From a virus (lineage: Duplodnaviria; Caudoviricetes), in IMG/VR virus record IMGVR_UViG_3300034126_000020, positions 128,001 through 192,000 of that record: DNA of 64,000 nt; one strand, given 5' to 3'. The stretch's first letter is position 1. Every line of letters begins with the position of its first letter. Position numbers and translations under genes: made by a program. This document shows, piece by piece, positions 2,039-14,740 of this stretch. The notes beneath the pieces were generated by a model. It made no database searches. It saw only the letters and a program-made list of their open reading frames with translations, and had not been told where the DNA came from.

Positions 2039-2111
2039 ACAAATTGAATCAACCAGCGGGACGGCGTCCGCCTACACCCTGCGCGCCGCGCAGGAATGCC
2101 ACTGATTGAAA

Positions 2112-2229
2112 GGGTCGTCCTAGGGAGACTCGAACTCCCGACCTCTGCCGCGTTGTTAAGCCCCTGATTCCCCCGCTGAGGAGGGAGGGGCTTGAAAGGC
2201 AGCGCTCTAACCGACTGAGCTACAGGACT
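2112..2229 (-). tRNA. tRNA-like gene with a hairpin inserted in the anticodon loop (identity uncertain)
   Basis: Canonical D arm GCTC-AGTCGGTTA-GAGC, T arm GGGAG-TTCGAGT-CTCCC and anticodon stem CTGCC/GGCAG, but the loop is 48 nt and the 3' end reads ACCC rather than ACCA. Confidence 0.75.
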
Positions 2230-2539: not shown

Positions 2540-2614
2540 TGGAAGAGGTATCTGGGATCGAACCAGAGAATGATGGGATCAAAGCCCATTGCCTTACCGC
2601 TTGGCTATACCTCT
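2540..2614 (-). tRNA. trnQ: tRNA-Gln(UUG)
   Basis: ATGGG-CTTTGAT-CCCAT; cloverleaf with CCA. Confidence 0.95.
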
Positions 2615-3234: not shown

Positions 3235-4077
3235 TTACACCAGACGACGGTTACCGTCGGCCAGTTGGACTTCGATTTCGATCTGGAAGTCTTCAGAGAA
3301 CGAGGAGGTCACGTGAGTGATACCGCGCTGTACGTCCATGCCGATGTCGAACAACAGTTCTTCACCGATGTCGCCCGAGATGCCGAAGCCACGCACCATC
3401 TTCTCAACGCGCACAGTGGCGTCGTCGATCTGATCGCCATTCGGACCAAAGACCTTGACGGACTTGACCGGGACGTTGTAGATAGTGCCGGTGTAGCAGC
3501 ATGCGTCGATCTGACCTTCCAGCGCCTTGAAGATGCGTGGCATGATGTCGAAGCGAGTGCCGTTGGCCACCGAGAAACGGATCAGTGCTTTGTGCTGAAC
3601 ACGGGCTTCTGGCAACAGCAGTTCCAGACGCTGGGTCAGAACGGTTTCCAGACCTTGCATCAGACGCAGTTGCTCTTGTTGCAGAGCAAGCTGGTGGATG
3701 TCGAGGACTGGCAGGTTTTCGATGCTGCTCAGTTGAGCTTCAGTCAGCTCTTCTTTTGGCAGCGTCAGCAGCTCTTGACGGAACAAGAAGTCAGAGAGCT
3801 TTTGAAGACGATCGTAGTTCTCAGCACGCTCGCCTTTGAGGCGCTGAATGAACGGAGGCAAATCGGAAGCATCACCGATAGCGATGTACGCTTTCTCGAA
3901 CGTTTCCACTGGCGAGAGGCTCACGTAACCGTCTTCGTATTCGACTACGTAGACTTCCTCTTCCATGTTTGGATGGTTACCGCCGACTGCGCGGGTTTCA
4001 GCAGCCAGGCTGCGGGACATCTTGGCAGCGCGAACAATCTTGGTGCCAGTGTAGTGTTGGTAGGTTGGAAGCGACAT
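3235..4077 (-). CDS. Multi-domain phage protein (YxGTK...YEDGY.S.SP..TFEKAY N-terminal domain, coiled coil, C-terminal beta domain)
   Basis: 280-aa ORF; N-terminal motif recognised from a widespread small phage protein family. Confidence 0.7.
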   Translation of the reverse strand: MSLPTYQHYTGTKIVRAAKMSRSLAAETRAVGGNHPNMEEEVYVVEYEDGYVSLSPVETFEKAYIAIGDASDLPPFIQRLKGERAENYDRLQKLSDFLFRQELLTLPKEELTEAQLSSIENLPVLDIHQLALQQEQLRLMQGLETVLTQRLELLLPEARVQHKALIRFSVANGTRFDIMPRIFKALEGQIDACCYTGTIYNVPVKSVKVFGPNGDQIDDATVRVEKMVRGFGISGDIGEELLFDIGMDVQRGITHVTSSFSEDFQIEIEVQLADGNRRLV

Positions 4078-6553: not shown

Positions 6554-8152
6554 TTAGACTGCCGCGCCTTCTACTTGGCTGATCTTCAGTGCGGCTAGGG
6601 TGAAAAAAACGTAACCGATGTCGATTGGGATCAAGTACGGATGCGTTTGGTCTTCAGGCTCCTTCTGGCACGCCGGGCACTTGACTTTCGGCAGGCCGAT
6701 GTAGGAGACCGTGGACTTCTTGATCCATTCGATGATTTCGTTGGTGAAGCGATCACCGACTTCTGGGTCTTCGGACAACATCTCGAGGATACGGTCTTTG
6801 TTCACCAGGTCATCGTAGATCACCGGCGCCGAGTCAGCGTCCAAGGCGTGCTCGAAGTGAGCCACCCAATGACTGTACTGACGCAGGTTCGTCAACGCAC
6901 CACTGCGCATGATGTGTCGAACGCGGTCCATCTCAGACAGACGCGCACCGAACGCATCGTTGGTCGCTTTGGAGATACCGTCAACCCACACGTGACCGGA
7001 ATCGATCTGTGCAGCCAGCGAAGGCACCTTCAATACCGCAGTCAGGTTGTTACCCAGTGCGATACGCTTTTCAGTGAAGGTGAACTCGGCTTGGTATTCA
7101 GCCAGCCACTTCGCATCACGCTTGGCGCTACGCGAGGCCATCTTCAGCGCTTGGCCCGGGGTGAACTTGGAACGGTCAACAAAGCCCATACGAGCAAAGT
7201 TGATCAGCACTTCGTCGACGTGCTTGCACTTGTCCGGATCGGCAACGCACGGCTGACGCAGCGGGTAACCGTCTGGGTACATTGCACAGGCCAGACCCCA
7301 CAGCACTTGCTGGTAGTCACGGCTACGGATCACGTCCATCAGCTCATCAACAGTCTCGCCAGTTTCAAAGGCGTAGTTGACGGAGACGACGTGCTCCAGA
7401 GCGAAGCGCATGTAGGTTTCAACAGTGTAGACTTCCACTGCCGAGAACACCATGCCGTTCGAGGAGCGACCGAGGTTCATCTTCTCCATGCGGGTCTTCT
7501 GTTCGAAGTCCAGCAGAGCCTGGATGGTCGGGGCACGGAAGGTGAGCCACAGACCGGTGTTCCACAATGGCACTTGCACCATCGAGCCTTGGCCAAAGGT
7601 CGCACGGATTGCCATGATCGGGTCTTTCATGTTGGCAGGTTTGACCTTACCAGCACCCAGAGCCGTTTCATTGTGCATCAACGTGTTGTGCCAGTTGCCT
7701 TCTTTGTCGATGCCGTCGAAGTACATGTCTTGCCATACGGCGGACAGACTGCGGGACAGGTTGACCAGACGGCGGTCTTCAGGCGAGAGGGTCTTGGCCT
7801 TCTCGTCAGTGAGATCGTTCAGACCACGGTGATCCATGATCATGCCCATCTCTTCCATGCCGACCTTCAGCGCAACGAGGCCTGGGCGACCTGGATCGAG
7901 GTCTTGACGTTTGAACATGGGTGACGCCATGGTGACGTGCGGGTTCGGACTGTCGAACTCTGCCCACAGTCCTTCGATTTCCATGCTGACTTCGGGTACT
8001 TGTTCTTCTGGAGCTTTAGCAGTGGCCGCTGCTGTGGTGGCTTGGGCGAATGCTTCAGCGCTGGTAGCGCCGTCTACGTTCGGTACCAAGTTGGACGTGT
8101 CCAATTCCACCTCGTCCATTCCTTCATTCTGGGGTTTCTGGTCGTCGCTCAT
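6554..8152 (-). CDS. Conserved Chimalliviridae protein (phiKZ gp77-like); T4 gp26-like tail/baseplate-hub assembly chaperone
   Basis: 532 aa; C-terminal VKCPACQK...YVFF resembles T4 gp26 IKCPECGK...EFF. Confidence 0.65.
   Translation of the reverse strand: MSDDQKPQNEGMDEVELDTSNLVPNVDGATSAEAFAQATTAAATAKAPEEQVPEVSMEIEGLWAEFDSPNPHVTMASPMFKRQDLDPGRPGLVALKVGMEEMGMIMDHRGLNDLTDEKAKTLSPEDRRLVNLSRSLSAVWQDMYFDGIDKEGNWHNTLMHNETALGAGKVKPANMKDPIMAIRATFGQGSMVQVPLWNTGLWLTFRAPTIQALLDFEQKTRMEKMNLGRSSNGMVFSAVEVYTVETYMRFALEHVVSVNYAFETGETVDELMDVIRSRDYQQVLWGLACAMYPDGYPLRQPCVADPDKCKHVDEVLINFARMGFVDRSKFTPGQALKMASRSAKRDAKWLAEYQAEFTFTEKRIALGNNLTAVLKVPSLAAQIDSGHVWVDGISKATNDAFGARLSEMDRVRHIMRSGALTNLRQYSHWVAHFEHALDADSAPVIYDDLVNKDRILEMLSEDPEVGDRFTNEIIEWIKKSTVSYIGLPKVKCPACQKEPEDQTHPYLIPIDIGYVFFTLAALKISQVEGAAV
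6602..6608 (-). other. Candidate -1 ribosomal slippery heptamer T_TTT_TTC
   Basis: Codons GTT TTT TTC; the -1 frame runs stop-free into ATG 6512. Confidence 0.7.
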
Positions 8153-13775: not shown

Positions 13776-14405
13776 TTAGACAAAGTTCCAGTCAGGATCA
13801 TCAGAGTTAAGCTTATTGCGGATAGTGGTGCGACCCATCTTCAATTCACTCGCGGCGATCTGGATACTGGGGTATGTAGTCCCATTAATCACGATCTCCT
13901 TCTGTCGAGCCTCACCTATACGGCGCTTGTGTTCATCAGAGTGAGGTCTGCCCTTACCGATCTCGGAGAGTTTACGACAAGTCTCTTCAGACGGTGGAGC
14001 GCGGTGTATTGCAGCTACACGCATCCGTTGAAGTGTCTCTTCGCTGTATACTCTCCCGAGATTAGCTTGACGACACTTCTCTCGACTCTCTTCAGGCATC
14101 CCATGAGACCATGCAGCAATCGATCCCGTACCAAGGTTGGCACAGTCCGGGTCACCATGATGGAAGTTAATGAGGCTCTGTTCAAGCCGCTTTGAATGAT
14201 CTTCCGATGTTGCAGCGATGTACTCCACCTCAACATTGTCCCAGCTCGTAAAGCCGCGTTGTAGGTTTTCATTCGGATGGTTCCCGAGATTAAAACGACT
14301 ACGATGATCTCGTAGTCGCTTATCGAGATTATTGGTGCTTCCGACGTAGAACGTGCCGGACTGGGTGTCTGTGATTTTATACGCTGCAACGATCGGCTTT
14401 GTCAT
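13776..14405 (-). CDS. Free-standing GIY-YIG homing endonuclease with NUMOD3 repeats and a C-terminal NUMOD1/HTH
   Basis: AAYKI...FYVGST..LDKRLRDH; SEET.xKMS-type repeats; INGTTYPSIQIAASEL. Confidence 0.9.
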   Translation of the reverse strand: MTKPIVAAYKITDTQSGTFYVGSTNNLDKRLRDHRSRFNLGNHPNENLQRGFTSWDNVEVEYIAATSEDHSKRLEQSLINFHHGDPDCANLGTGSIAAWSHGMPEESREKCRQANLGRVYSEETLQRMRVAAIHRAPPSEETCRKLSEIGKGRPHSDEHKRRIGEARQKEIVINGTTYPSIQIAASELKMGRTTIRNKLNSDDPDWNFV

Positions 14406-14740
14406 GCCGAGATTTCGATGATCGATTGCCACTTGTTCAGTTGTTCGTGTTGATAGCTGAACAGCAACGTGAAGTTCAGGAAGTCATCCCCCATCTCTTC
14501 GTTGTGACGATGACACACCGTCATCACTTCGTAGAGTTTCGTTTTCTGTTCCTCTACTTCGGGCCATCCCAACTTGCTATCGCGAGGAAGGACAGACAGA
14601 TACTGTCCTCCATTCGGTGAACAGGTATGGACACCCGTATGTTGCAAGCCAAGCTCTTCACACTTGGCCAGTACCTTTGCCATCCCCTGCTTGTCGGAGA
14701 TAGCGTACACATGCAACGTCCTGAATCCGTACTCACTCAT
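14402..14740 (-). CDS. Hypothetical protein
   Basis: 112 aa; stop overlaps the endonuclease start (ATGA). Confidence 0.65.
   Translation of the reverse strand: MSEYGFRTLHVYAISDKQGMAKVLAKCEELGLQHTGVHTCSPNGGQYLSVLPRDSKLGWPEVEEQKTKLYEVMTVCHRHNEEMGDDFLNFTLLFSYQHEQLNKWQSIIEISA

Follow-up and report, generated by a model that had tools for sequence, protein, structure and literature searches.

A tRNA-like gene with a hairpin-closed anticodon loop and a conserved fold in the tRNA array of a phiKZ-like jumbo phage

Introduction

The tRNA array of an uncultured jumbo phage contains a 118-nt gene, called X in the following, that keeps the acceptor, D and T arms of a tRNA and has its anticodon loop closed by a hairpin. 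Phage tRNA genes are usually taken as a codon supply or as a means of escaping host defence. X keeps the tRNA shape, cannot decode as it is written, and has a design that is under selection. We class it among the tRNA-derived, tRNA-like small RNAs that come from phage tRNA operons. In a search of the literature at the level of full text we found no description of a phage or bacterial tRNA in which a hairpin closes the anticodon loop. Standard tRNA finders skip such genes, and one limited pattern scan was enough to bring up a dozen more in unrelated phages.

Results

The phage and its tRNA array

The window analysed here is a stretch of 64,000 nucleotides that corresponds to bases 128001-192000 of a virus record, complete at 276,810 bp and bounded by direct terminal repeats. 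The window's genome encodes the nuclear-shell protein chimallin, a divergent family-B DNA polymerase and a fragment of a beta-type RNA polymerase subunit (Rpb2 domain 6). Its nearest cultured relative is Pseudomonas phage pPa_SNUABM_DT01 (MW735835.1; DT01 below), with a chimallin identity of 85.5%. The gene set together with the kinship to DT01 therefore identifies the virus as a phiKZ-like (nucleus-forming) jumbo phage with a Gram-negative host. Using the protein encoded upstream of the array (3235-4077, minus strand) as a query, we retrieved two related IMG/VR phages of 276-277 kb, L005 and L006. In both of them X comes immediately behind tRNA-Asn, and its insert measures 39 and 35 nt, respectively.

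On the minus strand of the window, ARAGORN and the Rfam tRNA model placed tRNA-Tyr, tRNA-Asp, tRNA-Gln, tRNA-Asn, X and tRNA-His in this order, the ordinary members lying within 1965-2957. All of these ordinary tRNAs carry U at anticodon position 35 and hence read codons with A as the second base (Tyr, His, Gln, Asn, Asp); four are GUN tRNAs and the remaining one is Gln(UUG). Codon classes with A at the second position are those cut by several known anticodon nucleases. The ordinary tRNA-Asp(GUC), at 2620-2696 of the minus strand, is the nearest normal kin of the X body inside the array, and the CCA of tRNA-Asn(GUU), at 2234-2309 of the same strand, stops 4 nt ahead of X. The sole terminator-like site on the minus strand is located beyond tRNA-His, which is consistent with a single transcript for the array.

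Some members of the array have changed among relatives. The last member alone differs, being tRNA-His here, missing from L005, and tRNA-Ser in a further relative, G007. The tRNA-Asn gene is 100% identical in the window phage, L005 and L006. L005 and L006 also have a tRNA-Gln gene in common (100% identical), to which the tRNA-Gln(UUG) of the window (2540-2614, minus strand) is 77% identical; the Gln gene of the window phage has apparently been replaced.

Fold of X

X occupies positions 2112-2229 of the minus strand, and its homologs lie at L005:7916-8030 and L006:7832-7943. The Rfam tRNA model (RF00005) gave it 52.4 bits, well above the gathering score of 29, and located an insert of 43 nt in the anticodon loop. 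ARAGORN skipped X in its default mode; run in intron mode, as had been proposed when the sequence was first read, it called a tRNA(tca) with a 41-nt insert. The preliminary description of this locus, a tRNA with a hairpin in its anticodon loop, proved correct in its coordinates, its letters, the 48-nt loop, the mismatch at position 1:72 and the ACCC end. Minimum free energy folds were made for all three copies, and RNAfold reproduced the cloverleaf with its two-step hairpin.

The 5' strand of the acceptor (2223-2229) forms six pairs with 2122-2116 and leaves A1 mismatched opposite G72. The 3' strand (2112-2122) runs on through the discriminator A73 (2115) to a terminal CCC (2114-2112) rather than CCA. 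The D arm (2204-2220) consists of GCUC, a 9-nt loop with G18 and G19, and GAGC, a stem of 4 bp; the variable loop has 5 nt; and the T arm (2123-2139) reads GGGAG/UUCGAGU/CUCCC. Acceptor, D and T arms all pair as in a cloverleaf, and the tertiary contacts of the elbow, G18/U55 and 19:56, are kept.

What X lacks is the seven-base anticodon loop. The anticodon stem, with CUGCC (2198-2202) as its 5' strand and GGCAG (2145-2149) as its 3' strand, has 5 standard pairs in all three copies. Between its strands the window phage has 48 nt (46 and 42 nt in the relatives), made up of UUUC, a 36-nt hairpin and AACAACGC. The 5' strand of the resulting internal loop (2194-2197) is UUUC in the window and UUUUC in the relatives, and together with the next two A's it resembles the 5' part of an anticodon loop. 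The inserted hairpin (2158-2193) is composed of a 7-bp helix P1, a 6-bp helix P2, a 6-nt loop and a 4-nt bulge on the 3' side. The 3' strand of the internal loop is AACAACGC (2150-2157), of which AACAACGU and AACAGACAC are conserved forms. The insert is single-copy in the 277-kb genome, and we therefore rejected a repeat element or mobile hairpin as its source.

Other identities of the insert were tried and dropped. No U-run follows the hairpin, as a terminator inside X would have, the strand's one terminator-like site being the one past tRNA-His. Readings of the insert or of the next spacer as a preQ1 riboswitch, a hammerhead or an HDV-like ribozyme found no match in Rfam.

Conservation and compensatory change

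The conservation of this fold was assessed by counting pairs with a script from helices set by hand; realignment with a covariance model had left P1 of the window one base out of register. With three sequences a formal covariation statistic is powerless, and what follows are counts only. Acceptor pairs 2-7, the D, anticodon and T stems, P1 (6-7 bp) and P2 (5-6 bp) contain standard pairs exclusively in all three copies, amounting to 33-34 helix pairs per copy with not a single one broken. Within P1, both sides are changed at pair 2 (A:U versus G:C), pair 6 (C:G versus G:C) and pair 7 (C:G versus A:U). The same is true of T-stem pair 3, which is U:A in L006 versus G:C, and of the tertiary pair 19:56, which is A:U in L005 and G:C in the other two copies. 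The sequence of P2 differs in each copy, that of L006 being GACCC-UUCG-GGGUC. Overall, the hairpins are 56-70% identical between copies and the segments of the tRNA body 79-95%.

The unpaired parts of X show conservation of their own. Both strands of the internal loop are conserved, the 5' strand as UUUC or UUUUC and the 3' strand as AACAACGC, AACAACGU or AACAGACAC. Position 1:72 is A/G, G/G and A/G in the three copies, so that the mismatch is conserved, as is A73. All three copies of X end in CCC, in contrast to the CCA encoded by all 14 ordinary tRNAs of the three arrays.

That the helices are kept despite the divergence of the hairpin, with changes on both sides of pairs, marks X as an RNA selected for its shape and not as a decaying pseudogene. 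X is present in three independent assemblies, and thus represents neither an assembly artefact nor a chance fold. The preliminary description had named an artefact or decay of the arms as what might undo it; neither applies, since X recurs in two independent metagenome assemblies with all helices intact.

Origin and distribution of X

A covariance model built from the three copies of X scored these copies at 125-136 bits. The search with it covered 14 sources (the window and 13 loci), in which the next-best eight matches were seven tRNA-Asp genes, six of them at 55-62 bits and the seventh at 52.3, and one tRNA-Pro that ranked between the sixth and the seventh at 53.2 bits. With the insert removed, X has 57-62 of 77 bases in common with tRNA-Asp genes and 43-53 with other tRNAs. 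The slot after tRNA-Asn that is filled by X in our phage holds tRNA-Asp in DT01 and tRNA-Ser in G007, which is the closer relative of the two (chimallin 88%).

X is limited to three phages whose chimallins are 95-98% identical, and relatives at 88% and 85% are without it. Pattern scans of IMG/VR DNA keyed on X recovered nothing beyond the two relatives and a single chance match in coding sequence; a scan on the acceptor motif of X added one unrelated phage type, represented by L054, L165 and L166, which are all identical. A metagenome scan with the flanking protein led to the same two phages, one contig that is cut before the array, and one distant match. The cultured-phage collection contained no copy of X, its best partial matches being ordinary tRNA-Asp and tRNA-Met genes, and X was found in none of ten further clade members that we identified through chimallin and searched for tRNAs. 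The Asp-like body and the confinement to a narrow sub-clade thus identify X as a young, remodelled paralog of tRNA-Asp; an ordinary tRNA-Asp is still present elsewhere in the array.

Capacity of X to decode

If the insert is treated as an intron, as in ARAGORN's intron mode, the nominal anticodon of X is UCA in the window phage and UUC in both relatives. The 5' loop strand of the window is one U shorter, and the anticodon, counted from the stem, therefore differs. In the window phage TGA ends 117 of 285 greedily called genes (41%), with a coding density of 93% under code 11. TGA is hence an ordinary stop, and an opal reader would have no recoded genes to act on. The possibility of a tRNA-Sec or opal suppressor was likewise rejected: UCA is not conserved, X has a variable loop of 5 nt instead of a long variable arm and a D stem of 4 bp instead of 6, and TGA is a normal stop.

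Identity elements for charging are missing as well. In E. coli, G73 and G34 are identity elements for AspRS, and both of these features of tRNA-Asp are absent from X. The identity of E. coli tRNA-Glu depends on an augmented D helix with U11:A24 and U13:G22, the lack of base 47, and G1:C72. None of these features is seen in X, with its GCUC/GAGC D stem, 5-nt variable loop and mismatched position 1:72. A Glu-like tRNA disabled by an insertion, one of the readings offered earlier, agrees with the UUC of the relatives; it fails on the Asp-like body, on the missing tRNA-Glu identity elements and on the helices that stay intact in three copies. Because X ends in CCC, has a mismatch at 1:72, A73, no G34 and no conserved anticodon, and because no recoding occurs, it is probably non-decoding and presumably not charged.

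RNAs and genes found with X

Directly 3' of X lies a three-way-junction RNA of about 57-68 nt (2044-2111, minus strand; L005:8031-8100; L006:7944-8012). An outer stem of 9-11 bp, AAUCAGYGG/CCGCUGGUU, holds two hairpins, one of which contains a compensatory change (CCUGCGC/GCGCAGG versus CAUGCGC/GCGCAUG). No Rfam family matches this junction.

A different composite RNA, which we refer to as a 'double tRNA', occurs in relatives and is absent from the window's genome. It measures 151-153 nt and is encoded at L006:8019-8169 (plus strand) and at L046:552-704 (minus strand), the latter corresponding to G007:C1:7866-8018. Its outer part is a tRNA-like body, the anticodon loop of which holds a circularly permuted tRNA-like domain consisting of a T arm, a loop-closed acceptor and a D arm. 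Identity between the copies is 92%, each of the two acceptor stems shows compensatory changes, and ARAGORN reports a tRNA-Phe(aaa) with a 75-nt intron. With X and the 'double tRNA' in one clade, these phages have therefore more than once built a module into the anticodon arm of a tRNA.

In search of a partner protein, we compared all ORFs of the three phages with X against the two without it (G007 and DT01). Twenty-six small ORFs were confined to the X-bearing phages; among ten of the largest, which were scanned, those that could be named were a GIY-YIG homing endonuclease and an RNase-H-like PHROG. No convincing partner of X emerged from this comparison of gene content, in which ten of the largest of the 26 ORFs were scanned. 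The GIY-YIG/NUMOD3 homing endonuclease gene, at 13776-14432 of the window's minus strand, is present in the three phages with X and absent from G007 and DT01.

Inserts in tRNA genes of other phages

We also scanned IMG/VR for one common type of D arm followed by a T loop 55-85 nt later. Among the 119 matches, 14 (X included) had a full cloverleaf and a 5-bp anticodon stem enclosing 35-63 nt. Ten of the 14, against a chance expectation of about two, begin the enclosed stretch with seven bases that resemble a complete anticodon loop, with U33 and a purine at position 37. Without X the same form is seen in 9 of 13, and the types represented are Asn, Ile-UAU, Pro, Leu and Lys/Gln.

The 13 other loci (L054, L065, L070, L094, L115, L121, L122, L123, L125, L127, L146, L163 and L164) are on contigs of uncultured phages, and some of their genes end in CCA. 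One of the latter is the tRNA-Lys-like gene of L094, a contig that encodes a T4-type topoisomerase II subunit. L115 and L163 contain tRNA-Asn-like genes with inserts. In L054 the insert-bearing gene follows a normal tRNA-Thr after 5 nt and has an acceptor end like that of X, with N1 opposite G72 and with A73. On ten contigs that were checked, neighbouring genes match families of bacterial or archaeal viruses (tail fibre, DNA polymerase, helicase), and some of the insert-bearing contigs could be archaeal viruses.

Discussion

The explanation that we favour, if tentatively and with slightly less than even confidence, is that X is a functional, non-decoding mimic or scaffold RNA derived from tRNA-Asp. 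According to this proposal X arose from a duplicated tRNA-Asp gene and would be transcribed together with the other genes of the tRNA operon. With its elbow and its acceptor, D and T arms intact, the RNA could be excised by RNase P and 3' nucleases of the host and would be kept stable; processing by host enzymes thus seems plausible. In E. coli, RNAs built into the anticodon arm of a tRNA undergo processing and are stable (PMC3753655). A rigid, extended arm would replace the anticodon loop, with the 5-bp stem, an asymmetric internal loop UUU(U)C/AACA(G)AC and a hairpin of 12-13 bp in succession. This arm with its internal loop would be the working part of X, and it could not be accommodated in the decoding site of the ribosome. 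The A73 discriminator, the 1:72 mismatch, the CCC end and the loss of G34 would strip X of the marks required by AspRS.

How such an RNA might act can be pictured. By presenting a tRNA body together with the 5' half of a U-rich anticodon loop, X may occupy a tRNA-binding protein, for which an anticodon-loop nuclease or a modification enzyme of the host would be candidates. A decoy role against a tRNA-directed host protein would be the most economical guess, and such a decoy would help an operon that otherwise supplies only U35 tRNAs for Tyr, Asp, Gln, Asn and His. A non-decoding mimic or decoy had been among the first suggestions for this locus and fits best among them: the fold and hairpin are kept by compensation, the non-CCA end and the 1:72 mismatch are conserved, and the anticodon is not. 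Some observations speak against a mimic. In all three copies the insert directly follows position 37, and loop bases one to seven look like an entire anticodon loop (U33, purine 37), the state that an intron would leave; 9 of 13 unrelated insert-bearing phage tRNA genes have this placement too. Only three copies are known, all from one narrow sub-clade; the comparison of gene content gave no partner protein; and host enzymes may in principle trim the CCC end and rebuild CCA.

Could X instead be a real decoder interrupted by a short intron of a kind undescribed in bacteria and phages? Here a nuclease of the host, or one of the phage that has escaped recognition, would cut out the 35-41 nt after position 37, and an enzyme such as host RtcB would join the two halves, to yield tRNA(UUC) in the relatives and tRNA(UCA) in the window phage. 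The insert indeed sits at the canonical 37/38 site, at 37-39 according to ARAGORN in each of the three copies; in all of them a seven-base loop with U33 and A37 can be rebuilt from the first six bases of the 'loop' and its last one. Selection for the full tRNA shape, elbow pair 19:56 included, would be expected of a decoder, and with a UUC reader the array would also cover Glu among the codons with A second, after which Lys alone would be missing. An intron also gains some plausibility from the tRNA genes with inserts in the anticodon loop on 13 other contigs of uncultured phages.

Several results nevertheless make such an intron unlikely. A bulge-helix-bulge, which requires two 3-nt bulges with 4 bp between them, cannot be drawn, as the sole candidate for its central helix, UUUU/AACA beside the anticodon stem, is mismatched and the bulges are of the wrong size; the folds of X have an internal loop of 4-5 by 8-9 nt instead. 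The only tRNA introns known from bacteria are self-splicing ones of group I (PMC3400036). An Rfam search of the array region with E up to 1 found no ribozyme, group I or other intron family, and an insert of 35-41 nt falls far below the roughly 200 nt or more of a group I ribozyme core. Six-frame Pfam searches of the complete phage genome revealed no tRNA_int_endo, RtcB or Rnl2, nor did a six-frame search of the same genome find a CCA-adding enzyme. The anticodon left by splicing would differ among close relatives, an opal suppressor is at odds with a stop codon that ends 41% of genes, and the body is of the Asp type without tRNA-Glu identity elements and carries A73, the 1:72 mismatch and CCC. 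The earlier proposal that excision would leave an opal-reading UCA is right in its arithmetic for the window phage; it has against it the UUC of the relatives, the 117 genes ending in TGA, the lack of a bulge-helix-bulge and of an Rfam ribozyme match in the array region, and a genome in which no endonuclease or tested ligase family was found. A broader version, to which we give still less credence, takes X as one example of a general phenomenon: phages would carry inserts of about 30-60 nt at the canonical tRNA intron site, neither group I nor bulge-helix-bulge, that are processed by an unknown cut-and-rejoin pathway in infected bacteria, perhaps host anticodon nucleases combined with RtcB-type repair, so that the tRNA is active only in certain cells or at certain times.

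Two further explanations start from the tRNA body itself. X might be mainly a processing handle, its tRNA shape recruiting RNase P and 3' nucleases to free neighbouring RNAs, above all the three-way junction, with exact ends. In the herpesvirus MHV68, tRNA-miRNA units use their tRNA part as such a handle. X and the junction are kept as one block in all three phages whereas the tRNA beyond them varies (His here, none in L005, the 'double tRNA' in L006), and only a few bases (CCCUU) lead from A73 of X to the outer stem of the junction. An ordinary tRNA would be an equally good handle, though, and the conserved hairpin, the internal loop and the lost charging marks would go unexplained; we consider this account rather improbable. 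The account that we find least credible takes X for a dead copy of tRNA-Asp that an insertion inactivated and that persists, by chance, while its lineage is still young. The distribution over three genomes is narrow enough for that, the lost CCA, the 1:72 mismatch and the interrupted loop are what a dead gene might show, and the length of the U-run varies between copies. A dead gene would hardly have retained 33-34 pairs per copy with none broken in the face of hairpins only 56-70% identical, nor changed at least five pairs on both sides, a tertiary pair included; moreover, the insert is not a repeat element.

Several known RNAs resemble X in part. The engineered tRNA scaffolds of Ponchon and Dardel (PMC3753655) share with X the retained acceptor, D and T arms and, in place of the anticodon stem-loop, an insert closed by a hairpin; the body of these scaffolds is recognised by E. 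coli factors, which leads to precise processing and stability (PMC3753655). Unlike the man-made scaffolds, X is natural and has a conserved asymmetric internal loop, a non-CCA end and the 1:72 mismatch. Intron-containing pre-tRNAs of archaea and eukaryotes share with X an insert of similar size (35-41 nt) just after position 37 and an extended anticodon arm. X differs from them in its bacterial host, in having no bulge-helix-bulge and no conserved anticodon, in its CCC end and 1:72 mismatch, and in that its phage encodes no splicing endonuclease or tested ligase family (RtcB, Rnl2).

Phage T4 produces species 1 and 2, also called RNAs C and D, which are stable non-tRNAs from a tRNA operon, are processed by tRNA enzymes and have no known function. 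They are merely tRNA-like at one end, whereas X is clearly a remodelled tRNA-Asp. YrlA and other bacterial Y RNAs are, as X may be, non-decoding tRNA mimics in which another helix extends the anticodon stem. YrlA has a closed acceptor, and both termini of the RNA are located in the Ro-binding stem, whereas in X the acceptor ends are free and the arm is closed. X was rejected as a YrlA RNA, the Rfam score over an overlapping stretch being 21.7 bits against a threshold of 69, with no TROVE/Rsr gene in the genome. In phages of the T5 type, tRNAs with altered anticodon loops escape the anticodon nucleases of the host, and the likeness to X would lie in a tRNA operon adapted to defences that cleave tRNAs; such tRNAs still decode and differ by point changes, unlike X, which cannot decode as it stands.

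If X is a decoy, it would imply a tRNA-directed defence of the host and a new counter-measure, made of RNA, on the side of the nucleus-forming jumbo phages, a group with members in use against Pseudomonas. Were X spliced instead, tRNA splicing that depends on proteins would be seen for the first time in the bacterial world, which could be categorically new.

Odd anticodon arms are also met in cultured phages. In DT01 (MW735835.1), ARAGORN run in intron mode reports at 6941-7154 a tRNA-Gly(gcc) that would contain an insert of 120 nt, which may be a false call. The cultured Pseudomonas jumbo phage D6 (OQ363659.1) has, at L047:2006-2088, an Asp-like tRNA annotated as tRNA-OTHER, the anticodon stem of which has 6 bp and encloses 14 nt. 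This Asp-like tRNA of D6 could provide a tractable model for unusual anticodon arms.
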